Source: Candidatus Chisholmbacteria bacterium (GTDB lineage Bacteria > Patescibacteriota > Microgenomatia > UBA1400 > Chisholmbacteraceae). From it: a DNA stretch of 64,000 nucleotides. Positions 3,435-21,097 of the stretch are shown in pieces (the stretch's first letter is position 1; each line of letters opens with the position of its first letter). The translations under genes and the position numbers were made by a program. The notes beneath the pieces are model-generated. The model did no database searches and was not told the origin of the DNA. It saw only the letters and a list, made by a program, of their open reading frames with translations. The DNA is taken from NCBI GenBank assembly GCA_963704905.1, contig CAVPHZ010000001.1:65547-129546 (forward strand), given 5' to 3'.

Positions 3435-3436
3435 CA

Positions 3437-4492: not shown

Positions 4493-4567
4493 TTTCTTTT
4501 AAGCGTTTTCTCAGTTTTGATGTGTATCCTTGTTTTTGATCATTAGAAATGGAAGGAGGTGAACAAC

Positions 4568-5077
4568 ATGAATAAGAAAATTATTATCCCAGCATTAACG
4601 ATCGTCATTGGCGGAGGACTACTTTATGGAGCTAGTCAGGTTGCTGCACATGGGTTTGGGTCTCGATCAGGAAATGAGAGTGTGGTAACTCGATTTGCTG
4701 AAGCCTTTGGCAAGAGTGAAGATGAAGTCAGAGCTGTGTTTGATCAACTTCATGAAGAGCATCAAGCAGAAATGATGACAACGTTTGAAGAGCGACTGAG
4801 CCAGGCCGTAGCAGATGGAACTCTTACTGATGCTCAAAAACAACTCATTCTTGATAAGCATGAAGAACTCATGGCTGATAAAGAATCAAGTTGGGAGACA
4901 TATAAAGATATGACTCCGCAGGAGCGACGCGCTGCTATGCAAGCAAAACACGATGAGCTTGAAGCTTGGGCAGAAAAAAATGGCATTGACCTAGATTTCC
5001 TGGGTGGATTTGGACGGAAGATGGGTATGCATGGCGGACATGGTGGATTTGGAGAGAAATTTGGAAAATCGCTTTAG
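4568..5077 (+). CDS. Secreted LTXXQ-motif protein, CpxP/Spy-like periplasmic chaperone/adaptor candidate with Gly/His-rich tail
   Basis: A GGAGGT ribosome-binding site lies 9 nt upstream. There is a signal peptide ('IIIPALTIVIGGGLLYGASQVAA') and an 'LTDAQKQ' LTXXQ motif. The protein is helical and acidic. The C-terminus is 'GGFGRKMGMHGGHGGFGEKFGK'. It sits directly downstream of a two-component system. Confidence 0.4.
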   Translation: MNKKIIIPALTIVIGGGLLYGASQVAAHGFGSRSGNESVVTRFAEAFGKSEDEVRAVFDQLHEEHQAEMMTTFEERLSQAVADGTLTDAQKQLILDKHEELMADKESSWETYKDMTPQERRAAMQAKHDELEAWAEKNGIDLDFLGGFGRKMGMHGGHGGFGEKFGKSL

Positions 5078-5201
5078 AAATAGCTCTTGCTCTTTTCCTA
5101 GACACTCCCTTTTCAATGGGGGTGTTTAGGATGCCAAATAACTAATGTGATCTCGCTCATATATTTTCTATATTTATTAAGGTAGCATTACATCTCACTT
5201 T

Positions 5202-6260
5202 ATGAAAAAACGATTTATTCTCTCAATTACTGTGCTCTTGATTGCGGTTCTTTTTTTCGGATTGAGTGAGTTTAGAAATCGAGAAATACATGAAGGTCAA
5301 ACATTATCCGTGTTCGAGGAAAGCGTGATTCGTGATGAAGGTGGTCCAGCACTTGAACCCCACCCGCTCTCAATTGAGACGCTAAGGCAAGGTGAGTATT
5401 CAGGGAGCGAGATTGTTATTGAACAAACATTGAGCCATGGCTCAAATTACTCCCGCTACATTGCTTCACATAAATCAGAAGGTCTGAAGATATTCGGACT
5501 TCTCACCATCCCAGATGGAACTCCTCCTGATAGTGGATGGCCAGCGATAGTTTTTAACCACGGTTACATTTCTCCCTCTGTCTATCGAACCACGGAAAAG
5601 TATGTTGCCTACCAGGATGCGTTTGCAAGAAATGGTTATGTTACATTTAAATCGGATTATCGAGGACACGGCAACTCTGAAGGCGATGCACGAGGTGGGT
5701 ATGGAGCTAACGACTACACCATCGACGTATTGAACGCGCTGGCTTCAGTTCAAAAGCTGGAGGAAGTAAATCCTGACAAGATCGGCATGTGGGGTCACTC
5801 TATGGGTGGGCACATTACTCTAGAGAGTATGGTGGTAAATACGGATATAAAGGCTGGAGTTATTTGGGCTGGTGTCGTCGGTTCCTATGAAGACCTGTTT
5901 GAGCGATGGAGAAGACGCTCCGGTCCCACTCCAACTCCAAATCCAAATAGCCAGCGAGGTCGCTGGCGACGGGAGTTGTCTGAGCTTTTTGGTGATCCAA
6001 GCGAAAATCCTGAGTTTTGGAATTCATTATCTGCTACCTCTTACCTTGATGATATCTCCGGTCCAGTGCAACTTCATCACGGAACCGCTGATTCCTCAGT
6101 GGAGGTTGAGCAGTCCACAGGGCTGGAACAACGACTTAAGGATGCCGACAAACCTGTAGAGCTGTTTGTCTATGAGGGAGATGATCATAATATTTCCAGT
6201 AATCTTTCACTTGCCCTTTCCCGCTCGGTTGCGTTTTTTGACAAATACCTCAAGGATTAA
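5202..6260 (+). CDS. Secreted alpha/beta hydrolase, prolyl-oligopeptidase (S9)/dienelactone-hydrolase-like serine hydrolase
   Basis: It has a signal peptide, a nucleophile elbow 'GHSMGG', and Asp and His ('GDDHN') late in the sequence. Confidence 0.7.
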   Translation: MKKRFILSITVLLIAVLFFGLSEFRNREIHEGQTLSVFEESVIRDEGGPALEPHPLSIETLRQGEYSGSEIVIEQTLSHGSNYSRYIASHKSEGLKIFGLLTIPDGTPPDSGWPAIVFNHGYISPSVYRTTEKYVAYQDAFARNGYVTFKSDYRGHGNSEGDARGGYGANDYTIDVLNALASVQKLEEVNPDKIGMWGHSMGGHITLESMVVNTDIKAGVIWAGVVGSYEDLFERWRRRSGPTPTPNPNSQRGRWRRELSELFGDPSENPEFWNSLSATSYLDDISGPVQLHHGTADSSVEVEQSTGLEQRLKDADKPVELFVYEGDDHNISSNLSLALSRSVAFFDKYLKD

Positions 6261-6264
6261 TTTT

Positions 6265-7059
6265 ATGAAAAAAATTTTTCTCGTTGTTTTATTGATCACT
6301 TCCGTTTCGGTGGGAGTGTTTCTTTCTAAACCACAACCTCCAGCAGAATTGTACGGGGCTCCTCCTTATATTGAGGACGACGGGTCGGCGGAGCTTGATT
6401 TTGGAAGGTTTGGTAATCTATCAAACTGGACGCGTCCAGAAGGGCCACTTCGGGTCGGACTTCAGGCAGGACACTGGAAACACCAGGAGCTTCCCGACGA
6501 ACTAGCAAGACTTAGGGCGCGAGGAGGAGGAACGAGCAGCGGTTCGGTAGCAGAGTGGGAAGTTAATTTGGTGATCGCTGAAGAGACGAAGAAGCTGTTG
6601 GAGGCGGAAGGAATTGTGGTTGATATTTTACCGGCTACCATACCTCCCGCTTATTACGCTGATGTTGTGGTAGCTATCCACGCAGATGGGAGTACGAGTC
6701 CGGCTACATCCGGATTTAAAGTAGCCGCTCCCAGAAGAGATAGGAGCGGAAAAGCGCCAACGCTTGCTAGGGTGATTGAAGAGGTTTACCAGCAACAAAC
6801 AAAATTAGCAATAGATCCAAATATCACCAGGAACATGACTGGGTATTATGCTTTTAACTGGAGAAGATATGATCATTCCATCCATCCCATGGCTCCCGCA
6901 GTTATTTTAGAAATGGGATTTTTAACCAACCCCACCGAAGCGAGGTTACTCATTCAAACACCAGAAATTCCGGCTAAGGCTTTGATGTTGGGAATATTGA
7001 CTTATCTTGACTCCGAAAGTTCATTGAGCTTTAGTCCAAATTCTCTTAGGAGAGGGTAA
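6265..7059 (+). CDS. N-acetylmuramoyl-L-alanine amidase (Amidase_3 / CwlD-like), secreted
   Basis: The true start is taken as ATG at 6265, preceded by a signal peptide 'MKKIFLVVLLITSVSVGVF'. The upstream portion of the six-frame ORF overlaps the hydrolase gene. 'VVAIHADGS' and 'ILEMGFLTNPTEARLL' match Amidase_3 motifs. Confidence 0.6.
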   Translation: MKKIFLVVLLITSVSVGVFLSKPQPPAELYGAPPYIEDDGSAELDFGRFGNLSNWTRPEGPLRVGLQAGHWKHQELPDELARLRARGGGTSSGSVAEWEVNLVIAEETKKLLEAEGIVVDILPATIPPAYYADVVVAIHADGSTSPATSGFKVAAPRRDRSGKAPTLARVIEEVYQQQTKLAIDPNITRNMTGYYAFNWRRYDHSIHPMAPAVILEMGFLTNPTEARLLIQTPEIPAKALMLGILTYLDSESSLSFSPNSLRRG

Positions 7060-7791: not shown

Positions 7792-8586
7792 ATGAATTTT
7801 GTAGCTCTTGATCCAAGACAAGTCTTGCAACGATTGGAGCGAGCGGAAACGCTACTTGACGCTGATTCAACGACAAAAGCAAAATTTTATGCACTCCGTA
7901 AGCTGGTCAAAGGGATCAACCCTGCTCTTGATAAAAAACTATCAACAATTTCTAGGACGCTCAAACAAATCGATTTGTATAAACATGGTAAAGTGGTGGA
8001 ACTTACGGTTCACCACTTGCCTGAGGATACGAAGGAGAGAAAAAAACGAAAAAAATATTTACTTCTCCTTCTTAAACAATGGAAGGGTTTGAAAAGTGAG
8101 GTTAAGCGAGTAAAAAAGGAGCTGCAAAAATCGTCGCAGCAATCTTCTGCCAGTAAAGTACGTTCTGGAGGAAAACTTCTTGCCACTGCGAAGGGTCCGC
8201 TGGGCCTTGTCACGGTAATGGCAGCGGTTATTGCTGGTGGGGTTATCTATCTGAACACACAATCAGTGACAATAACTATTAAGAATGTTAATTGTGAAAC
8301 TATCGAACCAATTGGGATGAACTTCAATCTTCCTGGGATCAAACTACCAAATGAACCCATTCCTGCTGGCGGACAAACTACCCTGATGCTTCCACCATTT
8401 TTAGTTCAAGTTGACGCGAGTAATCCAAACAAAATTAATCTTTCCGCTCTCCGGATGAATTTAAATTTTGATCGATCTCGAGTCGGTGGTGATATTCTTT
8501 TCAACGGACAGTCATTGCTTAACAGAGTTACTGACATTAAACTCGGCTCACAAAAATCTCACATTATCACAGTAACTTGTCAGTAG
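7792..8586 (+). CDS. Hypothetical single-pass membrane protein (Lys-rich cytoplasmic N-terminus, about 110-aa external C-terminal domain)
   Basis: The ORF is 264 aa with one TM segment ('LGLVTVMAAVIAGGVIYL'). No recognisable family. Confidence 0.4.
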   Translation: MNFVALDPRQVLQRLERAETLLDADSTTKAKFYALRKLVKGINPALDKKLSTISRTLKQIDLYKHGKVVELTVHHLPEDTKERKKRKKYLLLLLKQWKGLKSEVKRVKKELQKSSQQSSASKVRSGGKLLATAKGPLGLVTVMAAVIAGGVIYLNTQSVTITIKNVNCETIEPIGMNFNLPGIKLPNEPIPAGGQTTLMLPPFLVQVDASNPNKINLSALRMNLNFDRSRVGGDILFNGQSLLNRVTDIKLGSQKSHIITVTCQ

Positions 8587-8600
8587 ATGTTCACTTTCCT

Positions 8601-9707
8601 TTAGCTACTTATCACCAACAATTCTTCAGATATTTTCTCTAGATTTCTCAAAATTAGTTGCCTTCTATCCCCAGTGACTACTCTAGGTTGACCGAAGTCT
8701 TCTATGAGTACAGGTTCAAAAGTTGCATCCACAAGCTTTCCTTCATAGAACATAAATGCTCCTACTAAACCTTCACGAGTTTTTTGTGACCACATTTGGT
8801 CGAAGATAAAATTACCTAGCGAATATACGATCAGTTTGTCGTTGTAGATTTCAATTGGTTGAATCCAGTGTGGATGGTGTCCGATGATGAGATCTGCTCC
8901 AGAGTCAATTATTTTGTGAGCGAGATCGATCTGTTCTTTGGATGGCTTCTCAGTGTATTCGCTTCCCCAGTGAAACGAGACGATCACAATGTCTGCATTT
9001 TTTTTAGCTACTCTAACATCAACTAACGTTTTGTTCTCATCTAACCATGAAACATCTGATCTTCTTGGAATTATCTGATTGTATCCCATAACAGCAATTT
9101 TCTTGCCCTTCTTATGTATGTACTCAATGTTGTTTAATCCGACTGTAGAAATTAACTTCTCTTCCAACAATATTTTTGTTTGTTCTATACCAATCTTTCC
9201 ATAATCTCCTGAGTGATTGTTCGCGAGTGTGACGATATCAATCCCTGCAAGTAGGAGTCCTTCAATATTTCTTGGATCACTACAGAATCGAGTATTCTCG
9301 TTGGTTATTGGGCAGTTTTCTATAAATGGCCCTTCAAGGTTTACTAGAGTCAGATCAGCTTCCTGTAAGTAATGGGCTGTTTTTTCAAATGGCCAGGGAA
9401 AGTTGTTGTCCTGTGTTGTTTTCATATTCACTGATCTACCAAGCATGACATCACCAGTTGCTATGAGCTTCAGAGAATTGCTTTCATCGAGATCAATGAT
9501 CCAATGAGGTTTTTCTCCGAAGATTTGATCAAGAGTGAGAGTATGTTGGTCAGTGGGTGTTCTTTCCACCTTTTGAGTGAGTTTTTGAGAAGTTGGAGTC
9601 GGCAGTCGAGTTTTGAGGCTTTGGTTTGGGTTTGAATGAATTTGATAGTAGTAAATTGTGAGAAATACAAGTAAGAATAAATATGCTACTGGAGCTACGT
9701 ACTTCAT
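8601..9707 (-). CDS. CapA/PGA_cap-family metallophosphoesterase (poly-gamma-glutamate CapA-like), signal-anchored
   Basis: 'GADLIIGHHPHWIQPIE', 'YSLGNF' and 'VSFHWGSEY' are typical of the CapA metallophosphatase family. The six-frame ORF begins at a TTG at 9743. ATG 'MKYVAPVAYLFLLVFL...' at about 9707 is the likelier start and gives an N-terminal TM anchor. Confidence 0.75.
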   Translation of the reverse strand: MKYVAPVAYLFLLVFLTIYYYQIHSNPNQSLKTRLPTPTSQKLTQKVERTPTDQHTLTLDQIFGEKPHWIIDLDESNSLKLIATGDVMLGRSVNMKTTQDNNFPWPFEKTAHYLQEADLTLVNLEGPFIENCPITNENTRFCSDPRNIEGLLLAGIDIVTLANNHSGDYGKIGIEQTKILLEEKLISTVGLNNIEYIHKKGKKIAVMGYNQIIPRRSDVSWLDENKTLVDVRVAKKNADIVIVSFHWGSEYTEKPSKEQIDLAHKIIDSGADLIIGHHPHWIQPIEIYNDKLIVYSLGNFIFDQMWSQKTREGLVGAFMFYEGKLVDATFEPVLIEDFGQPRVVTGDRRQLILRNLEKISEELLVISS

Positions 9708-9726
9708 GAAAATAAGTTGGTGTGGG

Positions 9727-10521
9727 TTAGTAAAACACGCCAATGACGTAACTTGTTCCTTGAAGCGTTGGATTGTCGAGGATTAATGCTCCGTGGGTAT
9801 TGTGCCATACTTCAAAATCAGTTGCTCCGAGGCTGTTCATCGTTAATAAAAACTCTGCCATTGCGACTGGAGAGTCTAGGTGATCATCCTCGTAGTTCAG
9901 GAGTGATGGATAATCGAAATTACTAATTGTCGATATTGTTTCATCATTCTTTTCCATTGCTTCCAGTTGCATAAATTCATGAGAAAAATCGACACTAGCG
10001 ATAAATAATGATCCTGTGGGAAGTAACTGCGTGAAGAACTTGGCTTTGCTTTCCAGATCATCGAGGTTATATTGAGCGGAAATGATGAGTGGTATAACTT
10101 TCGCATTTGGAAAATACTCAGTCACATACGGAAGCAGTTCCTGAATGCTATGCTCTGTAGCAACTCGTTCATCATCAATGATAATTTCGGGAAATTCCTC
10201 TGTAATAGCTAGGATGATATCTTTTGCAAGATTAATACCCTCTAATTGCTCAGCGGTTTTAAAGGTTGCTACCTCGGTTTCAAGGTGATTTGGACCAAAA
10301 ATGATGATATGGGAAAACTCTTTCTCCTGTGAAAGATTCTTAAGTGATTCGTTTATAAGTTCGCTCGCAACAGCGTGGTGCGGAAGAATAATTCCCCTCA
10401 CCTCTTCATAGGTTTTCGTTCCTGCTACTTCTCCACTTGAATGTTGATTGAGGTAGTATGTTAGTAAAGATGAAATTACTAAAGCAACAAGTGCAATACC
10501 AAAGCTTTTCTTCATATTCAT
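9727..10521 (-). CDS. Memo-family (MEMO1 / AmmeMemoRadiSam protein B-like, LigB superfamily) protein, signal-anchored or secreted
   Basis: The N-terminus has a hydrophobic signal. 'ILPHHAVAS', 'IIIFGPNH', 'EHSIQELLPYV...AKVIPLII' and 'ASVDFSHEF' align with Memo motifs (PHAGyxYSG / vvlGPsH / EHSlEmQLPfL...kivPilvg / SDfSHyg). It overlaps and abuts the flanking genes, indicating an operon. Confidence 0.6.
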   Translation of the reverse strand: MNMKKSFGIALVALVISSLLTYYLNQHSSGEVAGTKTYEEVRGIILPHHAVASELINESLKNLSQEKEFSHIIIFGPNHLETEVATFKTAEQLEGINLAKDIILAITEEFPEIIIDDERVATEHSIQELLPYVTEYFPNAKVIPLIISAQYNLDDLESKAKFFTQLLPTGSLFIASVDFSHEFMQLEAMEKNDETISTISNFDYPSLLNYEDDHLDSPVAMAEFLLTMNSLGATDFEVWHNTHGALILDNPTLQGTSYVIGVFY

Positions 10522-10524
10522 AGA

Positions 10525-13500
10525 CTACTTTCTTTCATTAATTGATATTGGCTCTTCAGCCACGCTAGAAAATACTGACAACGCTCTGGTTGATTGGAAT
10601 ACAATTGGTTCCGCAATATATGTACCCACTGCGTTGGCTCTCGCATAATACACCAGCTGTCTACTTCCATGCACTTGCCACCATGGAGAGTTGTAGAAGG
10701 AATAATTCATTATATTCCGTTCACTTTCTCGGATCCACCCGTTTTGCTTCAAACCATACGCACTTGGATTTTTAATGTAAGTTAATCCAGATGGGAGATA
10801 ATCCGTGATTGTATAACCTCCTAGTGGTGCTGTATCAATATTGAGATTAAAGTCAATTGTGACTTGAATGATATCACCAGGAACAATTGAGTCTCCCTCA
10901 CCTCGTGCTTTTGAATATGTTCGCTTGAGAGTCAATCTGTCATCTGATGGAGCTTGAGCAAATTTATCCGGCCCAACAAAATACGTGGTTGTGACTTCTG
11001 CTTTTCCGTCAGTGACTTCTACAGTAGAGTTGTTTAGCTCGTTTTTCTCAAGGTTCAGTACCCAATTTCTTCCACCTTCGAGAGTCTTTGAAAGATTTCT
11101 TGCGTTTGAAGTAAACGTCACCGCGGTATCTTCCTCTGGTAGTTTTTCTAATTCACTCGTTATGAAGGCAATATCCCCCAGGTCGAGGACAATATCTTCA
11201 GCTTGAGTTTTGTAATCTCTGAGGTATTCATAGAAGCCATCGTTATATTGCTTCTCAACTAAATTGCCAAGAAGGAGGGCAAGGCTAGTATCTTGGATGT
11301 AGCTATCGAGTTGATTTCCTTTCTTGTCTTCAGCTTGGATTCGAATATACGGAGTGTAGGTGTAAGCATAATCTGCGAGGATGTCATAGTAGAGATCCCG
11401 GGCAACTTCAACTTCTCCACTACTTGCTAATGCAATGCCTGCCACTACTTTTTCCTCAAAGGTTGTTGCTGAATCTGCTAAGGCACGCAACCTGTTCACT
11501 TCGGGCTCGTCTAGACTTGATAATCCCCAAGCCGCATATATCTGTTGAATCGTACCACCTCTGCTTTGAGCAAGTTGAGCCTCAAGATAGCTGATGAGCT
11601 CGGCTTTATCGAATGACTCTGAGTGGATATATAACGCCCAGGCAGTCGACTTTAAATGACTTCCACCCCAATTTACTTGTGCCAACCCCCCATCTTCATT
11701 TTGGAACTTGGTTATGTCTTCTTTTTGGATTTGACAAGAAGTGTCGTTATACTTATCGAATAGAATATTTCCTGCGGCTATTCGTGCAAGTTGCTTCTCG
11801 AGTCTATTGCTGTATAAATAACAAAATCTCGTTAGATTACGATAGTAGCTCCCCTTCCCTTCATCACTAATCACAACAGTTACCGGCCGTTCTTCAAGGA
11901 TATTATCTTGTTTTACCGCATCTGTTCTGTCTCCTTTGTTGAGAATGCTCTTTTCTTCACTGTTGAACACAAATCTCGTGTCCAAGACATTGAACGGTAA
12001 TGCAATACCATCATCATAGGAGGAAGTATGTCCGCTTAGCGTAACTTTATACTCGCCTAAGGGGAGGAATGGAAAGGCAAAATTCACAGGTTTGAATGCG
12101 GTGGCAGTCTTATTCTCTTTCTTGACTTCCTCTTCACCGTTTAGAAAGATTGCTTCAAACTGTACAGTATCGCTGCTTGATAGTGCATTTCCGAATGAAT
12201 TCCCGGTAATATATGGTTTTTCTTTATTGAGATACTCCCTGGGAAATTGGCTAGTTACAAAAAAGTCTTTGCTCACGATGAGGCTTGACTCTAGTTGACC
12301 TGCATCGACGTTCCCTGATAACGCTTGGGCATAGATAATCCATGATGTGATATTGTCAGGAAGGTCAAATTCAAAGTTCGCGTATCCTTCAGCGTTGGTT
12401 GTAGCTTTTCCAAAAAAGGCCGTGTCCTTAAACAACTCCCGCATACCTCCACCGCCGCCTTTTTCGGCTTGAGCTTTGTCAGGAAATAGTGGTTTGTGAG
12501 AATTGTAGGTGTAATAGATAAAGCTCGATTCAGTTTCATAGAGCGATGGGAGAATGTTTGGCTCCCGTACACCACCAATCGCTGCTAAGGCTTGATCGAT
12601 TAAGGCGAGGTTGACAGATGCGTTTGAGATTGGACTCTCATCTTTTTTTACCCTTACACTTATCGAGGCTTTTCTACCTGGCTCAAAAGACGATTGGCTG
12701 GGAATGATTTCAAGATCTAACTGACTATCCAGTTGTTTGTAACGAATTTCTAGTCCACTGAAGTAATCTTCCCCATATCCATAGTATGAGTAACAGCTCC
12801 AACCCCATCGGCATGGAGTGGATACGGCTTCATAGTATCTTCCTGTAAAGGAGATTGCTGCTAAATAAATATTTGGAATATGAATCTGTTCAAATATAAA
12901 TGAAGTGTTCGGACTTTCTGAAACAATAGTTTTTTGCTCACCTTTCTTGGCAATTATAAAGAGGAAGCGATTTTTGTCATTGTCCGGATAATCCTCGTCG
13001 TTAATGATGATTTTTGCATCGATTAACTCTCCAACTGAGTAGGAATTTTCATCTTTGTTTACGGTAAGTTCCGGGTTTCGTTGCTCGGAGTAGCTCCCCT
13101 CACCTCGGCCTGGATAATAGTAGTACCACTCTGTCCGATTTGTTTCATGATTGTCACTGTCTACAATACTTATGTCAGCCCTGTATGATTTTCTTGGTTC
13201 CATCTGAAATTCTTTGTAAATCTGACCATTTTGATCAGTATTCATTTGAATATCTTCGACAATTTCTTTATGTTGTATGTACTGATATCTCGGTCGAGTT
13301 ACTTTCTCAATAAAATCATAGTAGACACCAGCTTCTTTTCTTTCTGACCATTGTTTGGTAATTTTAAGATTTACCTTGTGATTCTGAGAAGGACTCCCTT
13401 TTACCTCATTTGTTGTTCCCGCATTCATGCCGCTGAGGTCAACATGATTAACCGTTGCTATTAGCTTGGCTTTGTCGTTTTCCTGTTCGTTTTCCGTTGA

Positions 13501-15753
13501 AATCATTACTTTACTACCATAGACATAGACACTTCCATGACCTTCGATAGTTGCTTGCTCAGCGAGGGCCGGTGTAATCGTAATGCTTTCGTAGCGGGGG
13601 TAATTGTATCCACCTGTTTTATAGACAGGAGTGTAGGTAAATGTTGCTTCTCCGTTAAGGCTGGTTTCTAATTCGGAAGTTTTGTTGTTTTGTGATTCAT
13701 GGATTTTGATAGGAATATTACTAGCTGGAGTTTCATCAAAAAATTTTACTTGGGATGTATATTTTACTGTTTGATCGGTAAATATCGCTTTTTTATTTGC
13801 ATCGACTTCGATTTTCATTTCAGGTTTCTCGTATTCCAATACCTGAAACCCAAGACTCGTGATCTGTAAATCATTTACCGAAAGCGATAAGGTGTACCAA
13901 CCAGTTGGCGCGTCTACTAGAGCAAAGCTTTCAAGAAATGTTCCATCAGGTTGTGGATTTACAGTTTTCTTTAATACATCACTTTCCCCTCGCTGATACC
14001 CTATTGAGAGACTGAGCGTCGCGGAGGGGGTAAAATTCGAATCTTTTTCTTTAATTACGCCCCAGAAGTAGACTGTGTCGTTTGGCTTGTACATCCGACG
14101 TTCGTTATAGAGATAGGACCAGTAATCATCTGCAGTTTTTTGATTTGGCCGAGCATTACCTCCAAGCGATCGTACTGGAAGGAGGAGTTTTTTCTGATCT
14201 GGGTTTGTGATTTCAAGGTAATGTCTTCCTTTTTCAAAAAAGATTTCTGGGGTATTAAACCTTGCGATTCCATCTTGACTGGTTGAATAACTCAGACCAG
14301 TATCAATAACTTGTATATTTGCCAAACTGGCTGGTTGACTATTCACGATATTAGCCCATACTATTGATTGTTCCTTCCCCGCTGAGACATAGCCAGAAAG
14401 AAAGGTAGATTGGAGCCAAATTTGCTCTAATTTCGTTCCGTCTTCATACCACAGTTGAACAAGATAATAGCCCTCCGGCAAGGCTTGTGGAAGTTGGATG
14501 AAGGAAATATTTTCTTTATTTTGAATTTGAATATCTGCTTCTAAGACTTTTGAAAGGTTGCTCGTTTCAACAGCTTCCTCTTCAGCATAATAATTTCTCC
14601 AACTATCCAAGACTTCGTCGATCTTCTTCCTTGAGTCTAAATACTCTTGACTTGAAGGAAATTGATACACCTGGGCTTTAAGAACATCCTCTGGTTTCCA
14701 ATTTAAAGCGAAGACTTTTGCCATGTATTCTTCATTGGGAACAATTTGAGCAAAATCTACATCAATACTTACTCTGGCAGGTCTCTCCTCTTTTTCCTTG
14801 GTTTGGAAGGTGAATGAATAATCTTCAGAGATGGGATCGTCTCGCGACTCGAGTTTCAACCCTGCTTTGAGGGTCACTCTGTAGACAAATTTTTCGATGA
14901 GTGGTGCTTGTGGAACAATGGCAAGTGTATCTCCGTGCCGTTCGAGTCTGTAATTAATCTTGGGTTCTATGGAAATGAAAGGTGATGGATCTTCATAATC
15001 ATCTTGACTAAACACTAATTCAATTCCGGTATTGATTGGAACATTATTTTTCTTATCACCCGGAATATTACTTATGACTCTAAATTTTCCTTGTGTTTGA
15101 TATGCCCAGCTATAATCACGATCGAATGTATGTCCTTCATGCTCAACGCCTTCTACTGCGAGCTGAACTTTAAACACCTTATCTAAACCTAAAGGTGACT
15201 GTGGAGATATCGTTACTTCCTGGTCATTCCTGGCTGTTATTTGAATTGGAGCGCTACTTTGAATGTTTTGACGAATGAATTGTTCGGTGACTGGTTCTTT
15301 TGACTTTAAAATAAAAACCTCTTTGGGAAGGATTCCGTATGTACTCTGTGTTTGTGCTTCAAGCAAGAAAAACGGTGGTTCACGGTCAGGAATTTCCAGT
15401 CTTTTCCAGTCACCAACAGCCTGAAATCCAGTTGGAGAAGGTCGTTGAAGGAATGAAGGGAGTTTACCTTCCCTGTTTAAGCTGATTAAAACCGTCAATA
15501 ACGCAATAGTTACCAGGCTTGTTGATGTAGCTAAAAGAATTTTCTTTCTACTAGAGAATGTTTGCCAAAATGATTTAAACTGATCTCTTTTGGACGATAA
15601 GGATAGTGAAAGCTTTTTTAATAGTGAGGCGGGTTTACCTAGAATTGATTCCTGATTAGGACCAAGATTTTTAGGATTTGTTGATTGATCCTGAGAAGAA
15701 GGACTTTGATTGTTGTCTGTTGTGTTATTAATCTCAGTGCTGTTTTCGTCCAC
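10525..15753 (-). CDS. Giant (1742 aa) alpha-2-macroglobulin-family protein, N-terminal TM anchor, apparently thioester-less
   Basis: It has a GTG start and an N-terminal Ser/Asn/Gln-rich low-complexity region followed by a TM helix ('ILLATSTSLVTIALLTVLISL'). The A2M hallmark 'FKDTAFF...LPDNITSW' at about nt 12341-12455 matches FPETWLW...PDSITTW. The TED-like region 'FCYLYSNRLEKQ' sits where GCGEQ is expected and has no Cys-x-E-Q. 'EDGGLAQVNWGGSHLKSTAWALY' is TED-like. The C-terminal 'VYYARANAVGTYIAEPIVFQS' resembles the A2M receptor-binding region. Confidence 0.65.
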   Translation of the reverse strand: MDENSTEINNTTDNNQSPSSQDQSTNPKNLGPNQESILGKPASLLKKLSLSLSSKRDQFKSFWQTFSSRKKILLATSTSLVTIALLTVLISLNREGKLPSFLQRPSPTGFQAVGDWKRLEIPDREPPFFLLEAQTQSTYGILPKEVFILKSKEPVTEQFIRQNIQSSAPIQITARNDQEVTISPQSPLGLDKVFKVQLAVEGVEHEGHTFDRDYSWAYQTQGKFRVISNIPGDKKNNVPINTGIELVFSQDDYEDPSPFISIEPKINYRLERHGDTLAIVPQAPLIEKFVYRVTLKAGLKLESRDDPISEDYSFTFQTKEKEERPARVSIDVDFAQIVPNEEYMAKVFALNWKPEDVLKAQVYQFPSSQEYLDSRKKIDEVLDSWRNYYAEEEAVETSNLSKVLEADIQIQNKENISFIQLPQALPEGYYLVQLWYEDGTKLEQIWLQSTFLSGYVSAGKEQSIVWANIVNSQPASLANIQVIDTGLSYSTSQDGIARFNTPEIFFEKGRHYLEITNPDQKKLLLPVRSLGGNARPNQKTADDYWSYLYNERRMYKPNDTVYFWGVIKEKDSNFTPSATLSLSIGYQRGESDVLKKTVNPQPDGTFLESFALVDAPTGWYTLSLSVNDLQITSLGFQVLEYEKPEMKIEVDANKKAIFTDQTVKYTSQVKFFDETPASNIPIKIHESQNNKTSELETSLNGEATFTYTPVYKTGGYNYPRYESITITPALAEQATIEGHGSVYVYGSKVMISTENEQENDKAKLIATVNHVDLSGMNAGTTNEVKGSPSQNHKVNLKITKQWSERKEAGVYYDFIEKVTRPRYQYIQHKEIVEDIQMNTDQNGQIYKEFQMEPRKSYRADISIVDSDNHETNRTEWYYYYPGRGEGSYSEQRNPELTVNKDENSYSVGELIDAKIIINDEDYPDNDKNRFLFIIAKKGEQKTIVSESPNTSFIFEQIHIPNIYLAAISFTGRYYEAVSTPCRWGWSCYSYYGYGEDYFSGLEIRYKQLDSQLDLEIIPSQSSFEPGRKASISVRVKKDESPISNASVNLALIDQALAAIGGVREPNILPSLYETESSFIYYTYNSHKPLFPDKAQAEKGGGGGMRELFKDTAFFGKATTNAEGYANFEFDLPDNITSWIIYAQALSGNVDAGQLESSLIVSKDFFVTSQFPREYLNKEKPYITGNSFGNALSSSDTVQFEAIFLNGEEEVKKENKTATAFKPVNFAFPFLPLGEYKVTLSGHTSSYDDGIALPFNVLDTRFVFNSEEKSILNKGDRTDAVKQDNILEERPVTVVISDEGKGSYYRNLTRFCYLYSNRLEKQLARIAAGNILFDKYNDTSCQIQKEDITKFQNEDGGLAQVNWGGSHLKSTAWALYIHSESFDKAELISYLEAQLAQSRGGTIQQIYAAWGLSSLDEPEVNRLRALADSATTFEEKVVAGIALASSGEVEVARDLYYDILADYAYTYTPYIRIQAEDKKGNQLDSYIQDTSLALLLGNLVEKQYNDGFYEYLRDYKTQAEDIVLDLGDIAFITSELEKLPEEDTAVTFTSNARNLSKTLEGGRNWVLNLEKNELNNSTVEVTDGKAEVTTTYFVGPDKFAQAPSDDRLTLKRTYSKARGEGDSIVPGDIIQVTIDFNLNIDTAPLGGYTITDYLPSGLTYIKNPSAYGLKQNGWIRESERNIMNYSFYNSPWWQVHGSRQLVYYARANAVGTYIAEPIVFQSTRALSVFSSVAEEPISINERK

Positions 15754-15914
15754 GTCTTCAGTATATTATTATTCGTAATTATTTATCAATTTTTTATTTA
15801 GTTTGATATTTTTAATTTTCTGACTATCTATGTCGGAATTTACAATATTTTCGTGTTAGGGATTAAATTAAATCATTGATATGATGGGTGAAGTATTTAT
15901 TATGGGCAACTGAA

Positions 15915-16589
15915 ATGATACAAATTTCATCATCAACACTAGCATTTATTCAAAATCTTAAGAAGAATAATACTCGTGAGTGGTTTAACAGCCATAAAGT
16001 TGAATTCAAAAGAGCTCAAGTTGAATTTTCTGAGTTTGTTCATGAGCTCGCGATGCGAATATCAGTATTTGATTCTTCAATAAAAAAAGCACTTTTGATC
16101 CCTGGAACTGTTAAAATCTTCCGTATCTACCGTGATGTTCGATTTAGCAAAGATAAATCCCCTTACAAAACAAATTTTGGTGGGGTCATTACTGCAGGAG
16201 GAATGGAAGGTGGAAATCCAGGTTATTATTTACATCTTCAACCTGGTGAATCGTTTTTTGGCGGTGGACTTCATATGCCTTCAGCTCCAGTGCTAGGTAA
16301 GATCCGCGATGCAATCGATCAAGATGCAAAGCCTTTGAGAACAGTGGTTACGTCTGCGAATTTTAGAAAATACTTTCATGGCTTAGAAACCTATGATTCG
16401 CTGAAAACTGTTCCGAGAGGATATGATAAACAACACCCAGATGCAGATCTTCTAAAACTCAAAAGTCTTACTGTCTTTCATCAACTTAGTAATTCGCAAA
16501 TAACTGAGAAGGATTTTCTTGAACAATGTGTACGCATGTCAAAAGCAATGAAACCGTTTAATGATTATCTTCGTACTGTATCTCTTTAA
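15915..16589 (+). CDS. DUF2461 (TIGR02453) family protein
   Basis: 'NNTREWFNSHKVEF', 'FRIYRDVRFSKDKSPYKT' and 'GYYLHLQPGESFFGGGLHMP' match the DUF2461 consensus. ATG 15915 is preferred over GTG 15888. Confidence 0.7.
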   Translation: MIQISSSTLAFIQNLKKNNTREWFNSHKVEFKRAQVEFSEFVHELAMRISVFDSSIKKALLIPGTVKIFRIYRDVRFSKDKSPYKTNFGGVITAGGMEGGNPGYYLHLQPGESFFGGGLHMPSAPVLGKIRDAIDQDAKPLRTVVTSANFRKYFHGLETYDSLKTVPRGYDKQHPDADLLKLKSLTVFHQLSNSQITEKDFLEQCVRMSKAMKPFNDYLRTVSL

Positions 16590-17225: not shown

Positions 17226-17292
17226 ATGTCTAAGTTATTAGAAACATTTCGTAAAGTCAATTCCAAATAAAGAATGTTGTATATTGGTTTTA

Positions 17293-18855
17293 ATGAATAA
17301 GAAAAGGATTGGTATTGTTGTTGGAATTTTTGGATTTGTATTGCTTCTATTTTTGATTCCTGGACTAGTAGACAAGGGCAGCAAACCTGATTCAGGTGAT
17401 TCCAACTCTTCTTCTGAAGCAACTCTTCAACAAGTAAGTGTTAGAAAAGCGGCAGTATCCGGACAGTTTTATCCAAAAGATCAAGATGAGCTGAAGGAAA
17501 CTATCACAGGGTATCTGTTAAGCGCTGCTAAACAAAACAGTGAAATTAAACCAAGGATACTATTTGCTCCCCACGCCGGATTAGAATTCTCTGGAAAAAC
17601 TGCTGCATATGCTTATAAGCAAATAGAAGGTCACCAATACTCGAGGGTAATTATCCTTAGTGGAAATCATCATCATAAGAGTAAAAAAGCTGCGGTATAT
17701 GATCAGGGATCTTGGGAAACACCACTTGGTGCTGTTGATGTCGATGAAACCATTGGTCTTATGCTTATTGATGAGGAGAAAAGTATTATTTCGAATCCAA
17801 CTATGTTCACTCAAGATCATACGATTGAAATGGAGATACTCTTTCTTCAATCCGTACTAAATGACTTTAAAATTGTACCAATTCTTCTTGGTCAGGTAGA
17901 TGAAAGTGTCATCGAAGCGTTAGCACAGAAGCTCTACGAAATCATGGATGAGAACACACTGATTGTAGTAAGTACTGACCTTTCCCACTATCCAACATGG
18001 GAAGTTGCTAACCAAGTTGATCATCAGACGATTAATGCAATTGTCGGTGGTAGTCGGGAAACTTATCTCAATTCAGTTGAACATTTAACTCAAGAATATG
18101 CTTCACAAATCGATACTCATGCATGTGGAACCAAAGCCGTTGAGGTTGCACTGCAAACTGCTGAACTACTTGAGATATCAGACTTTGAGCTGATTGTTTA
18201 TTCAAATTCTGGAGATATTACAGGTGATCATTCTCGAGTTGTTGGGTATGCTGCAATTGTTGCTAGCAAAGATCATCTTCCTGGTTCATTTCTTAATGAA
18301 TCAGCAAAGAAAGAGGCGCTGGCTATTGCTCGAGAAACACTTGAGTCATATTTGACAGGTGGCGGCACGCCTCAATTTTCACCACATTCACGGTATCTCT
18401 ATTTTCCCCTTGGTGCATTTGTTACTCTGGAGAATGGTGATCAGCTTCGAGGTTGTATTGGTCATTTTGAACCTGCCATACCACTCCATAGAGTCATCCA
18501 GCAGGCAGCGATTGATGCGGCAACCAAGGATCACCGTTTTAAAAATGTCACTTCGTCCGAGATGAATGAGATTGAGATTGAAGTATCAATCATGACACCT
18601 CGGAGGAAAATAGACTCTTGGGAAGAAATCGAACTTGGCAAGCATGGTGTAGTTGTGCAAAAATCTAAAATATCTGGTACTTTTTTACCTCAGGTTGCAA
18701 CCGATACCGGGTGGAGCAAGGAAGAATTCTTAAAAGAGCTTTGTAGTCAGAAAGCCGGTCTTGCCAGAAATTGCTACCAAGACCCTTCGGTTGCACTTTA
18801 TGTATTTGAAGCACAGATTTTTGCAGATTATGAAGTCTCGGGATCACATATCTGA
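17293..18855 (+). CDS. Memo (AmmeMemoRadiSam protein B-like) - AMMECR1 fusion protein with N-terminal signal anchor
   Basis: N-terminus 'MNKKRIGIVVGIFGFVLLLFLIPGLV' followed by a Ser-rich linker. Memo motifs are 'LFAPHAGLEFSGKTAA', 'VIILSGNHH', 'DHTIEMEILFLQ...FKIVPILLG' and 'VVSTDLSHYP'. The C-terminal half has the AMMECR1 signature 'LRGCIGHFEP' at nt 18436-18474. Confidence 0.7.
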   Translation: MNKKRIGIVVGIFGFVLLLFLIPGLVDKGSKPDSGDSNSSSEATLQQVSVRKAAVSGQFYPKDQDELKETITGYLLSAAKQNSEIKPRILFAPHAGLEFSGKTAAYAYKQIEGHQYSRVIILSGNHHHKSKKAAVYDQGSWETPLGAVDVDETIGLMLIDEEKSIISNPTMFTQDHTIEMEILFLQSVLNDFKIVPILLGQVDESVIEALAQKLYEIMDENTLIVVSTDLSHYPTWEVANQVDHQTINAIVGGSRETYLNSVEHLTQEYASQIDTHACGTKAVEVALQTAELLEISDFELIVYSNSGDITGDHSRVVGYAAIVASKDHLPGSFLNESAKKEALAIARETLESYLTGGGTPQFSPHSRYLYFPLGAFVTLENGDQLRGCIGHFEPAIPLHRVIQQAAIDAATKDHRFKNVTSSEMNEIEIEVSIMTPRRKIDSWEEIELGKHGVVVQKSKISGTFLPQVATDTGWSKEEFLKELCSQKAGLARNCYQDPSVALYVFEAQIFADYEVSGSHI

Positions 18856-18861
18856 GCTAAC

Positions 18862-19545
18862 TTAATCTCCCTTAGCTGCTGTCGCGCATAGATTACATCC
18901 TCTTAGCATGTTAGATTTGTTTCCTTTTCGATCGACATAAAAGATATCAGTATTTTTAAACCCTGCTTCGTTAAGAAGTTTTCTCAAATACGCTTTATCA
19001 AACGCTACGTAAAATCTATTCCATTTATTTTGGTAGGGTTCATACAAGTATCGCCAATTTTTTCGTTTGAGTTTCAAGCTTTCTTTGGAAAAATGAGTAT
19101 CTAAATGACGAAAGTTCAGAAAATTCCATACAGAAATGTTGAGTACCCCTCCGTTTTTTAAGATAGATCTCGATTTATTTAGAACATACAATTGCTTTTT
19201 TCGCTCAGAAATGTGATGGAGTACAGCAATACAAAAGATAGCATCAAACTTAGGCAACCCTTTCCATACTTTTGACTTTGTGATATCCCCGTAGATAAAT
19301 TTTCGTTCAGGGTGTATATGTCGAGCATTCTTGAGAAGTGTCTTTGAAAAATCGATACCAATATATTCCACATTATTTTTTATTCCTGTCAGCAACCTTC
19401 CATTTCCACAACCAAGATCTAAGAGTTGATCACCACTTTTTAATTTTTCAAGTTCTTTCAATGTTTCCGGCCATACAAAACGCCTAGTTTTGCTAAAATG
19501 TTCTGCAATCTGGTTATATGTATCTTTTACCTGGTCTTGAATCAT
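18862..19545 (-). CDS. Class I SAM-dependent methyltransferase
   Basis: Motif I is 'LLDLGCGNGRLL' and motif post-I is 'EYIGIDFS'. The start codon overlaps the Elp3 start on the other strand. Confidence 0.75.
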   Translation of the reverse strand: MIQDQVKDTYNQIAEHFSKTRRFVWPETLKELEKLKSGDQLLDLGCGNGRLLTGIKNNVEYIGIDFSKTLLKNARHIHPERKFIYGDITKSKVWKGLPKFDAIFCIAVLHHISERKKQLYVLNKSRSILKNGGVLNISVWNFLNFRHLDTHFSKESLKLKRKNWRYLYEPYQNKWNRFYVAFDKAYLRKLLNEAGFKNTDIFYVDRKGNKSNMLRGCNLCATAAKGD

Positions 19546-21097
19546 GACATTATCACAACTTCTCTTAAGAGATTTTACGAAACTTTCAGAGAAAAATCTT
19601 TCTCAATATAAAAGACGTTGGGCAAAGTCCTTGGGTCATACTCCAAAGAATTCGAGTATACTCTCGACGTATTTTCGCCTCGTAGATCAAGGTGAGATCA
19701 ACCGTAATCAAAGTCTTGAAAGGCTATTTCAGGTAAAAAGCATGAGAAGTGTTTCCGGTGTAACACCTATGGCTGTGATGACTAAGGCATTTTATTGTCC
19801 CGGACAATGCACCTTCTGCCCAATTGATCTCAACCTTCCAAAAAGTTATTTGCGAGATGAGCCAGCTGCACAGAGGGCTTTGAAAGTGAACTTTAATCCG
19901 TATGAACAAGTCCGTAATCGTCTTAGACAGCTGGCATTAACTGGGCATGTAACAGATAAAGTTGAGCTGATTGTAATTGGTGGAACTTTCTCGGTGTACT
20001 CTAAAGAGTACAGGCGGTCTTTTTTTAAAGGATTGTTTGATGCGTGCAACGGCATTCAAAGCAAAACACTAAAAGCTGCTCAAAAGAAAAATGAATCCGC
20101 CAAACATCGCATTGTTGGCATTAGTATCGAGACACGGCCTGACTGGATTGATGAAAAAGAAGTTCGCCTGCTACGCGAGCTTGGAGTAACAAAACTCCAA
20201 GTTGGTGTTCAAGCTTTTGACCCTGTGATACTCAAGAAGGTGAAACGAGGACACTCTTTGAAACCTGTAGCAAATGCGACGCTGATGCTACGTAATGCTG
20301 GATTTAAGATTTGCTATCACTTCATGCCAAATCTTCCTGGGTCTAATCCAGAGAAAGATGTCGAAATGGCAAAAGTAATGTATCAGGATTCGCGGTTTAA
20401 GCCTGATTTTGTGAAAATTTATCCCACACAAGTGATACCTCGAACAGAGTTGTATGAACAATGGAAGCGAGGAGAATTCAGGACATATGATGATGAAATA
20501 ATGAAAGAAGTGCTTAAAAAGATAAAACTTATCACTCCACCTTGGGTTCGTATTGATCGGCTAGTACGAGATATCTCAAAGCAATGGGTTGCAGGAGGCA
20601 CGCTGCAGACTAATATGCGTCAGGTGATCCAACAGGAACTAGCTATGGAAGGCAAGCAATGTCAATGTATTCGATGCAGGGAGGTGAAAAGAAAGCTCTC
20701 TAACGAAACACCTCGTATGAAACGGATTACTATCGATACACTGGGTGGCACAGAAGTGTTTCTTGAGTATTCAACTGGAAAACATCTCTATTCTTTGTTG
20801 AGGATGCGACTGCCGAATGAAAAGCAAACGATGCTGTTTACTGAACTGAACGGTGCCGCGATTATTAGGGAAATCCATACCTATGGAGGTGTAGTTCCGG
20901 TTAATGAAAAACAGGATGACAGAGCTCAACATACGGGGTTTGGCAAGTCACTGCTTGAAAGAGCAGAAAGAATAGCAACAAAGAACGGTTTTAAGAAGGT
21001 TGCTGTCATTTCAGCGATTGGAACTCGTAATTATTATCGCAAGCTTGGTTATCTGCTTGAAGGTATGTATATGTTGAAACACCTTGCTAGTGATTAA
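19544..21097 (+). CDS. Elp3-family radical SAM + GNAT protein (tRNA uridine-34 carboxymethylation / acetyltransferase homolog)
   Basis: The Elp3 N-terminal signature is 'RSVSGVTPMAVMTKAFYCPGQCTFCP', with CxxxCxxC at nt 19791-19824. The C-terminal GNAT has 'QHTGFGKSLLERAERIA' (QHxGxG). Confidence 0.75.
   Translation: MTLSQLLLRDFTKLSEKNLSQYKRRWAKSLGHTPKNSSILSTYFRLVDQGEINRNQSLERLFQVKSMRSVSGVTPMAVMTKAFYCPGQCTFCPIDLNLPKSYLRDEPAAQRALKVNFNPYEQVRNRLRQLALTGHVTDKVELIVIGGTFSVYSKEYRRSFFKGLFDACNGIQSKTLKAAQKKNESAKHRIVGISIETRPDWIDEKEVRLLRELGVTKLQVGVQAFDPVILKKVKRGHSLKPVANATLMLRNAGFKICYHFMPNLPGSNPEKDVEMAKVMYQDSRFKPDFVKIYPTQVIPRTELYEQWKRGEFRTYDDEIMKEVLKKIKLITPPWVRIDRLVRDISKQWVAGGTLQTNMRQVIQQELAMEGKQCQCIRCREVKRKLSNETPRMKRITIDTLGGTEVFLEYSTGKHLYSLLRMRLPNEKQTMLFTELNGAAIIREIHTYGGVVPVNEKQDDRAQHTGFGKSLLERAERIATKNGFKKVAVISAIGTRNYYRKLGYLLEGMYMLKHLASD

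Follow-up and report, generated by a model that had tools for sequence, protein, structure and literature searches.

Conserved pairing of an alpha-2-macroglobulin family protein with a putatively exported Memo-like protein, and their facultative CapA-type partner, in a Candidatus Chisholmbacteria contig

The window analysed here is a stretch of 64,000 nucleotides (nt) from a Candidatus Chisholmbacteria bacterium (contig CAVPHZ010000001.1, positions 65,547 to 129,546), and the subject of this study is a run of three minus-strand genes in it. They encode a giant protein of the alpha-2-macroglobulin (A2M) family, a Memo-like protein of the LigB superfamily and a protein of the PGA_cap/CapA type. 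The three genes had been described in an initial annotation of the stretch and were confirmed by the open reading frame (ORF) listing:

10525-15753, minus strand: gene 1, A2M family, 1742 amino acids (aa), GTG start
9727-10521, minus strand: gene 2, Memo-like (LigB superfamily), 264 aa, ATG start
8601-9707, minus strand: gene 3, PGA_cap/CapA-type, 368 aa from ATG; an alternative TTG start at 9743 gives 380 aa

The 368-aa form of gene 3 is the version found in public protein collections. As read from the sequence, the TAG stop of gene 1 is followed by 'tct' and the ATG of gene 2, a gap of 3 nt, and 19 nt lie between the TAA stop of gene 2 and the ATG of gene 3; the spacing is thus of the co-transcription type, as had been proposed. 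The proposed families were also recovered, with Pfam matches above the cut-offs for A2M, Memo and PGA_cap. Individually these assignments are not new, and it is the partnership that is apparently undescribed. The initial annotation had not recognised it, and nothing in the searched literature links a macroglobulin with Memo, AmmeMemoRadiSam or PGA_cap; nor does NCBIfam hold a dedicated model for an A2M/Memo-like partnership. Membrane proteins with A2M domains have been mentioned, without partners, in Vampirococcus, a bacterium of the candidate phyla radiation (CPR) (PMC8080830).

The pairing of genes 1 and 2 was followed through one genome per GTDB species, using a peptide pattern derived from the Memo-like alignment only, and the best 80 of 141 relatives were considered. 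An A2M gene lies directly upstream of the Memo-like gene on the same strand in 59 of the 80 loci, with gaps mostly between -3 and +47 nt; in about 20 loci the two genes overlap by 4 nt (both from ORF calls). The rest comprise four loci with an A2M gene within 0.2-1.7 kb, one with it just downstream, 12 with none and four contig ends. In an all-against-all clustering of the ORFs of the loci, A2M was the only recurrent neighbour, present at 74 of them; the family ranking second was present at 10. Five close A2M relatives (42-51% identity) were also inspected: a Memo gene of 263-269 aa lies immediately downstream in all five and CapA in none. Two Chloroflexota-type A2M relatives (L008, L009) have neither a Memo-like nor a CapA gene adjacent.

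Carriers of the pair occur among Patescibacteria (Woese-, Ames-, Morani-, Uhr-, Levy-, Davies-, Blackburn- and Woykebacteria, and others), Dehalococcoidia/Chloroflexota (L027, L045, L055, L059) and Bacillota. The last include the cultured Sedimentibacter acidaminivorans DSM 24004, S. hydroxybenzoicus DSM 7310 and Brassicibacter mesophilus DSM 24659, and further carriers are Tepidanaerobacter, with the cultured T. acetatoxydans, Clostridium thermobutyricum, Hungateiclostridiaceae and Tissierellales. The A2M/Memo-like pair is conserved across three phyla and is near-obligate from the Memo-like side. The initial suggestion of a system specific to small-genome episymbionts was not borne out, as Dehalococcoidia/Chloroflexota and cultured anaerobic Bacillota keep the pair to the same degree. 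The Memo-like gene pairs with thioester-less A2Ms, with the A2Ms of a Patescibacteria clade that show CVEQ and a Pfam TED match, and with A2Ms containing a HINT domain; judged from these sequences, the pairing is independent of A2M chemistry. In some Bacillota loci two A2M homologues occur near each other (L028, 3-3977 and 4926-9779; L035, 203-895 and 994-5874), and the A2M gene after the Memo-like gene in L035 suggests tandem A2M-Memo-A2M arrangements. A glycyl-radical enzyme with its activase, MatE, a DinB-like polymerase, PdaC/DUF3298 and a cupin were considered as module members and were set aside as lineage-level synteny in the Bacillota loci.

CapA behaves differently. It is adjacent to the Memo-like gene in 6 of the 80 loci (L019, L027, L029, L061, L068, L085), as it also is in L007 and in the window, and it lies within 7.2 kb of that gene in L026 and L043. 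Recurrence of the triplet, which had been set beforehand as a check on the proposal, was seen in distant genomes: the order A2M-Memo-CapA is found in L007, L029, L068, L085, L126 and L139. In L007 the full triplet, with overlapping or abutting genes, accompanies a HINT-carrying A2M of 28% identity. Moreover, the Memo-like and CapA proteins are fused in four loci of Magasanik-/Falkowbacteria (L075, 3-1883; L081, 1480-3357; L084, 2-1603; L077, 658-2484, split), with a transmembrane anchor, a Memo-like domain and a PGA_cap domain following one another in the order of genes 2 and 3. In the L075 fusion Pfam places Memo at residues 89-260 (1.5e-23) and PGA_cap at 327-552 (1.1e-56). By the Rosetta-stone argument, such a fusion indicates that the Memo-like protein and CapA act jointly. 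CapA is a recurrent, non-random and facultative partner. It had initially been taken for a fixed member, which it is not, being absent beside the five closest relatives examined and having most of its own relatives in other contexts.

In 10 of the 12 loci in which the Memo-like gene lacks an A2M, it stands beside an unrelated anchored protein, here called c3. This is a transmembrane-anchored protein of 550-800 aa (for instance L072, 11022-12767; L073, 7371-9794; L075, 1885-3645; also L078, L083, L088 and L089) with a strongly conserved C-terminal half (ECGKPVIYLYP…YPYLFWEG…GFTVVEWGG). It has no match in Pfam or the PDB, and in NCBIfam only weak sub-cut-off matches to its N-terminal anchor region. 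The idea that c3 is a hidden A2M relative was rejected at an hhalign probability of 0.7%.

Gene 1 gives five Pfam matches above the curated cut-offs, A2M (1.5e-11), MG2 (1.5e-8), Big_5 (7.8e-8), MG4 (2e-5) and A2M_BRD (2.2e-5), those to MG2 and MG4 by a narrow margin. Among the Pfam families named at the outset, A2M, A2M_BRD (PF07703), Memo and PGA_cap were thus found in the locus, and TED (PF07678) was not, gene 1 giving no match to it. With a profile of the gene 1 family (39 members), E 6e-26 was obtained for E. coli ECAM/YfhM and 1e-22 for Salmonella A2M; the similarity covers the N-terminal, middle and C-terminal regions and not the TED. The AlphaFold2 (AF2) model of residues 880-1742 has a mean predicted local distance difference test score (pLDDT) of 86. 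It consists of beta domains, a disordered segment at 1087-1108, an all-helical region at ~1300-1537 and a C-terminal beta domain. Foldseek, which had been proposed as a check together with AlphaFold, returned the macroglobulin fold for this model, with ECAM (5a42, E 4e-37) as the best match; SaA2M, CD109, TEP1, A2ML1 and C3/C5 were also matched, in end-to-end alignments of ~950-1000 columns. The main features of gene 1 are:

15484-15540, minus strand: sole transmembrane helix (residues 72-90), after a low-complexity tail of ~70 aa (predicted cytoplasmic)
12583-13068, minus strand: bait-region domain, A2M_BRD (residues 896-1057; Pfam PF07703, 2.2e-5)
12430-12495, minus strand: disordered bait-like linker HKPLFPDKAQAEKGGGGGMREL (residues 1087-1108; pLDDT < 50)
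12208-12423, minus strand: 'A2M' (MG7) domain (residues 1111-1182; Pfam PF00207, 1.5e-11)
11143-11856, minus strand: all-helical TED-like domain (residues 1300-1537; helices 421-658 of the AF2 fragment, spanned by the structural alignment)
11791-11811, minus strand: SNRLEKQ at the position of the thioester GCxEQ (residues 1315-1321; from the alignment to relatives)

The protein therefore belongs with the A2M/thioester-protein superfamily, having an MG array, bait-region domain, MG7, CUB, helical TED and C-terminal MG8/bMG10 in order, and by alignment and modelling it is a genuine A2M-fold protein without thioester. Its close relatives carry the public names 'alpha-2-macroglobulin family protein' or 'Ig-like domain-containing protein'. 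A motif search of the window protein and 65 relatives found the CxEQ thioester absent from the gene 1 protein and its clade and kept in one Patescibacteria clade; its absence had gone unremarked in the initial annotation. The only cysteines of gene 1 are 981, 987, 1311 and 1340, and no Cys-Gln pair is present at the thioester site. In the multiple alignment, YGCVEQT of the thioester-bearing relatives corresponds to YSNRLEKQ in the window clade and to WGDRVDQ or YGKRIDQ in the Bacillota and Chloroflexota A2M clades.

The disordered linker sits between the bait-region domain and MG7, where a bait is expected, and in the profile alignment it coincides with the bait segment of ECAM. Its AE-x-GGGGG motif is conserved in the Patescibacteria, Bacillota and Chloroflexota A2M clades. 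A Gly-rich version of this linker is also kept in Memo-less A2M relatives, and such an oligo-glycine stretch recalls the Gly-rich cross-bridges of peptidoglycan that are the targets of M23 endopeptidases. Within the bait-region domain, a Tyr/Trp-rich aromatic loop CRWGWSCYSYYGYGEDYF (window 12754-12813, A2M residues 981-1000) is inserted with two flanking cysteines (C981...C987). It is present only in the window clade (Woese-/Amesbacteria-type sequences) and missing from the other aligned A2M clades. Another insertion was found in several Memo-linked A2M relatives (L037, 4575-9803; L043, 4777-9819; L085, 4662-9827; L007, 6001-11652), in which a HINT/bacterial-intein-like domain interrupts exactly the bait motif between the bait-region domain and MG7 (…SAERGAG|CFAAGT…WAHN|DKGGA…). 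As the residue after HN is Asp, the domain is probably unable to splice. It may bring about bait self-cleavage or thioester formation at the bait site, so that in some lineages this chemistry would be supplied by the HINT domain instead of an external protease. The L085 protein combines the HINT insertion with an intact CTEQ thioester.

Gene 2 matches Pfam Memo at 1.6e-14 (54 bits, cut-off 27) and TIGR04336 at 5e-18 (65 bits, cut-off 26). Since a phmmer search of the PDB with the Memo-like protein gave no match, its fold was established by modelling. The AF2 model has a pLDDT of 94, and its five best PDB matches are all MEMO1 (7l5c, 7kq8 and 3bcz among them), at a TM-score of 0.70; LigB-type extradiol dioxygenases rank after MEMO1. 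In an alignment of 29 Memo-like homologues P47, H48, H49, H79, P144, D178, F179, H181 and D216 are invariant and N78, H124 and P218 are conserved to at least 90%; E123 is invariant among seven syntenic sequences only. The Memo fold and the conserved His/His/Asp-x-x-His metal pocket place gene 2 in the Memo family. In the alignment, the D216-S-P218 motif occupies the place of the canonical 'ACG' with its Cys ligand, and this exchange of Cys for Asp suggests that the Memo-like protein favours a harder metal than canonical Memo does. Several carriers of the gene are strict anaerobes, which makes an O2-dependent chemistry of the LigB dioxygenase type unlikely for the enzyme.

A canonical Memo is also encoded in the window:

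17284-18855, plus strand: canonical cytoplasmic Memo fused to AMMECR1 (Pfam 3e-60 and 7e-52)
19544-21097, plus strand: radical SAM protein of 517 aa (Radical_SAM and Radical_SAM_C), beyond a methyltransferase that intervenes after Memo-AMMECR1

The Memo-AMMECR1 gene lies ~1.5 kb upstream of gene 1 on the opposite strand, and its Memo domain, ~7 kb away from gene 2, is only 20% identical to it; two very different Memo paralogues thus occur close together in the same genome. Relatives of gene 2 bear the public label 'AmmeMemoRadiSam system protein B'. This is misleading for the exported Memo-like subfamily, as its members are anchored and tied to A2M and not to AMMECR1 or a radical SAM enzyme. 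The subfamily is a large one: its profile retrieved 1,515 cluster representatives at E <= 1e-30 among 1.84 billion.

For gene 3, the following domain was identified:

8796-9470, minus strand: PGA_cap domain of gene 3 (Pfam 4.6e-67)

The match scores 226.6 bits against a cut-off of 27 and covers the profile from 1 to 255 of 255. Gene 3 is of the calcineurin-like fold, and its nearest solved structure is the epimerase MslH (8gq9, E 5e-13). MslH is the one PGA_cap enzyme for which a solved mechanism was found, a lasso-peptide C-terminal Trp epimerase that acts on a peptide C terminus; its metal site comprises Glu44, Asn87, His259 and His261, with two His/Asp dyads in addition (PMC10406935). Calcineurin-type ligand motifs (GD, NLE, NNH, H246, HPH, N299 and D303) are invariant among the CapA homologues linked to A2M and Memo. 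When gene 3 is aligned to 8gq9, Gly takes the place of one His in the HxH metal site of MslH, and an MslH-type epimerase identity was discarded, with NF038314 reaching 67 bits against a cut-off of 700. By sequence, gene 3 resembles MslH at the family level only.

All three proteins carry exactly one hydrophobic segment, close to the N terminus: residues 72-90 in A2M, 6-24 in the Memo-like protein (10450-10506) and ~3-21 in CapA (368-aa form). That of A2M is its sole segment with a mean hydropathy of at least 1.6 (2.31) and is preceded by SSRKK. A single N-terminal hydrophobic segment is found family-wide, in 59 of 61 A2M, 72 of 75 Memo-like and 8 of 8 CapA sequences, and in 59 of 61 full-length A2M relatives it falls within the first 150 residues. 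Lys and Arg precede the A2M and Memo-like helices, and one Lys precedes that of CapA; these positive residues point to N-in/C-out type II anchoring. From the N-terminal hydrophobic anchors we infer that all three proteins are exported, membrane-anchored ectodomains. The initial annotation had likewise assigned the A2M an N-terminal transmembrane anchor instead of a lipoprotein signal, and signal anchors to its partners, in accord with the hydropathy segments and the lack of a lipobox. A lipoprotein anchor for gene 1 was rejected, the first Cys being residue 981.

The surroundings of the three genes delimit them on both sides:

7792-8586, plus strand: convergent gene downstream of gene 3, ending 14 nt from the CapA stop
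15888-16589, plus strand: DUF2461 gene upstream of gene 1, divergent

With a convergent gene downstream, a divergent gene upstream and short spacers between them, genes 1-3 form a self-contained block resembling a transcription unit. No convincing terminator was found between them; the 9 kb hold four terminator-like sites, as compared with 7.0 +/- 3.2 in shuffles. A promoter-like TTGATA-18-TATACT lies at 15789-15760, directly upstream of the gene 1 GTG, as a match to the consensus only. Around the triplet, the window encodes GreA, an amidase, DUF2461 and TetR as neighbours, and no transglycosylase/transpeptidase (pbpC) is among them, as had been noted for this A2M. Downstream of CapA, the plus strand of the window at 2757-7059 encodes a response regulator, a histidine kinase, an S9/S15-type serine hydrolase and an Amidase_3 (N-acetylmuramoyl-L-alanine amidase). 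The same four gene types occur near the A2M gene of L006 (3-4335; A2M 42% identical), there upstream of it. This shared set may represent residual synteny or a shared envelope regulon.

Bacterial A2Ms have been known in two contexts, type I with PBP1c and type II in the mag operon, and a logic of protease trap plus wall enzyme has been proposed for A2M/PBP1c (PMC5764988). The type I proteins, E. coli ECAM/YfhM and Salmonella SaA2M, are the best sequence and structure matches of gene 1, share its domain order and are likewise encoded, as traps, beside an envelope enzyme. However, the CxEQ thioester, the lipoprotein anchor and the pbpC neighbour that mark type I are all missing from the window locus, so that it does not belong there, although some Memo-linked relatives in other Patescibacteria do retain CxEQ. 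With type II (MagD; E. coli YfaS) gene 1 has in common a large A2M fold, a bait-region domain, the lack of CxEQ, membrane association and an operon with accessory proteins. MagD of P. aeruginosa (magABCDEF) traps protease non-covalently without a thioester (PMC5764988). The likeness of the window protein to MagD is one of features and not of direct sequence comparison, its best solved match being the type I protein ECAM. The partners in the window are Memo-like and PGA_cap proteins and no six-gene mag/yfa cluster is present, so the locus is not of type II either; none of the six mag products is described as a Memo or PGA_cap protein (PMC5764988). Furthermore, MagD is periplasmic in a diderm, whereas the window A2M is carried on its own N-terminal transmembrane helix in a cell without outer membrane. 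As gene 1 is a member of the superfamily and the locus fits neither type, the arrangement points to a monoderm-type system in which an A2M with its own anchor is joined by an ecto-Memo-like protein and, in some loci, by CapA. This would seem to add a third kind to the bacterial macroglobulin systems.

The two partners differ similarly from their known relatives. With MEMO1 and AmmeMemoRadiSam B (PF01875, TIGR04336) the Memo-like protein shares the fold and a His-rich pocket (PHH, NH, D-F-S-H); the canonical proteins are cytoplasmic with a Cys ligand, whereas that of the window is anchored, predicted to be exported, and has D216. Lying between A2M and CapA and not with AMMECR1 and a dedicated radical SAM protein, gene 2 is no part of an AmmeMemoRadiSam system (TIGR04335-04337). 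Gene 3 shares with CapA/PgsA a strong PGA_cap match and an N-terminal anchor resembling that of PgsA, but CapB or CapC is missing nearby. Its linkage or fusion to a Memo-like domain is described neither for CapA/PgsA nor for MslH.

The explanation that we prefer, and to which as a whole we give an even chance, is that the three genes are one co-expressed module, in which a non-covalent protease trap is combined with a Memo-like partner and an optional CapA acting on envelope peptides. In a cell without outer membrane, the module would display three ectodomains, each with a type II anchor, on the outside of the cytoplasmic membrane. Gene 1 would be a monomeric thioester-less A2M, working most likely as the type II macroglobulin MagD does: a protease would cut the exposed, disordered, Gly-rich linker (1087-1108) between the bait-region domain and MG7, and the cage of MG, CUB and TED domains would then close around it non-covalently. 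Gene 2 would be the dedicated partner of the A2M, a Memo-fold metalloprotein with D216 in place of the canonical Cys ligand. Gene 3 would be a facultative extension of this enzyme, united with it in one polypeptide in some lineages. Together, the Memo-like protein and CapA would make an enzyme pair for envelope peptides, with the stem peptides of peptidoglycan or other peptide termini at the surface as the most plausible substrates, and could fill the 'wall-maintenance' role that PBP1c has beside type I A2Ms. Gamma-glutamyl polymers are the material handled by CapA/PgsA, and gamma-D-Glu as well as D-amino-acid termini are found in the stem peptides of peptidoglycan. The envelope-peptide idea is drawn from that activity of CapA/PgsA and from MslH, which acts on a peptide C terminus (PMC10406935). 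What we infer here is that gene 1 traps proteases, that the proteins associate physically, and what the Memo-like and CapA enzymes act on and by which chemistry.

Several observations weigh against this explanation. In 12 of the 80 loci no A2M accompanies the Memo-like gene (or its fusion with CapA), so that the enzyme pair is not strictly dependent on A2M. CapA is missing beside the five closest A2M relatives examined. When metagenome contigs were searched with the CapA alignment, a Memo-like neighbour was seen for only 5 of the 80 nearest CapA relatives (L121, L126, L139, L157, L169), and A2M was also present in three of these five loci. The bait-like linker is unusually conserved (AE-x-GGGGG), unlike classical A2M bait regions, which are hypervariable. 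The topology of the three proteins is taken from hydropathy only, and the peptidoglycan idea leans on the analogy with PBP1c and on the substrates of known PGA_cap enzymes.

The main rival holds that the Memo-like protein, with or without CapA, is a maturation factor acting on the A2M itself, by modification, metal loading or holding the trap 'cocked' on the membrane. We consider this unlikely, if still to be reckoned with. The tight coupling of the genes, with a 3-nt gap here and 4-nt overlaps in ~20 loci, is typical of stoichiometric partners, and the near-obligate pairing from the Memo-like side points the same way. There is also precedent: the type II A2M needs its operon partners MagA, MagB and MagF (PMC5764988), and MagD is degraded without MagB. 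The conserved S-N-R-x-E-K (here) or G-D-R-V-D-Q (other clades) that replaces the thioester could be the modification site. However, the Memo-like protein pairs equally with CVEQ, thioester-less and HINT A2Ms and is hence not tied to one A2M chemistry. Its occurrence without A2M, beside c3 or fused to CapA, argues against an exclusive A2M client, and at least two A2M relatives (L008, L009) lack an adjacent Memo-like gene. In another reading, the giant MG-domain protein would be no protease inhibitor but would have a structural or attachment function at the surface, such as contact with the host in episymbiotic Patescibacteria, with the enzymes remodelling the surface around it. The loss of the thioester, a bait-like linker whose conservation is atypical for a bait, and an N-terminal Big_5/Ig-like domain of a kind common in adhesins would suit such a role, and giant CPR surface proteins have often been read as attachment factors (PMC8080830). 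We nevertheless regard it as quite unlikely. The module is conserved in free-living anaerobic Bacillota and Dehalococcoidia, the full BRD-MG7-CUB-TED-MG8 order is kept in end-to-end alignment with bona fide protease traps, some Memo-linked relatives retain CxEQ and a Pfam TED match, and the authors of the Vampirococcus study themselves proposed a protease-defence role for its A2M-domain proteins (PMC8080830).

A surface-polymer role, which had been raised initially, would make CapA the mark of a locus for poly-gamma-glutamate or another capsule, with A2M and Memo as bystanders. The PGA_cap family is indeed named for CapA/PgsA of poly-gamma-glutamate synthetase. But CapA is accompanied by no other gene family in these loci, its neighbours in the window being GreA, the amidase, DUF2461 and TetR, and its fusions are to the Memo-like protein and not to a ligase. 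A CapBCA/PgsBCA locus was therefore rejected: CapB/CapC-like genes were found neither within ~7 kb on either side of the genes in the window, the rest of the genome not having been searched, nor among the recurrent neighbours of related loci, where only A2M, Memo-like and c3 recur. We think this reading very unlikely. Least credible of all is a chance row of three unrelated exported proteins in a compact genome. CPR genomes are gene-dense, with short spacers everywhere, and the closest relatives lack an adjacent CapA; but A2M stands immediately upstream of Memo-like in 59 of 80 independently sampled species from three phyla, the triplet recurs at only 28% A2M identity, and the Memo-CapA fusions are Rosetta-stone evidence of a functional link. 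For A2M and Memo-like, chance adjacency is effectively refuted.

Beyond the protease-trap module that we prefer, a bolder proposal may be recorded, which we hold to be improbable. The Memo-like protein, by itself or together with a fused or separate CapA, could be an unrecognised extracytoplasmic peptide-modifying enzyme wedded to a third, monoderm-type A2M class. Its task would be either to arm or re-set the trap or to edit the peptides of the wall where a protease attacks. In a sharper form of this proposal, the AE-x-GGGGG bait may mimic Gly-rich cross-bridges and so decoy the glycyl-glycine (M23/lysostaphin-type) wall-lytic endopeptidases of interbacterial warfare.

Both known types of bacterial A2M have been studied in Gram-negative bacteria, and what Memo proteins do biochemically has not been clear ever since the human one was described. 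The partnership described here joins these two poorly understood families. It looks like a third, widely conserved A2M arrangement in bacteria without an outer membrane (Patescibacteria, Chloroflexota and Bacillota), with a self-anchored A2M, a constant and putatively exported Memo-fold partner and a CapA-type enzyme often added or fused. The analysis also flags a systematic mis-annotation, in that exported Memo-like proteins are labelled 'AmmeMemoRadiSam system protein B'. The cultured carriers make experiments feasible. A link of the Memo-like protein to a protease trap and to a peptide-acting family, repeatedly reinvented, would give a testable context for Memo function, and the reading of the Memo-like protein as a peptide-modifying enzyme would, if true, be the first concrete biochemical handle on the Memo family.

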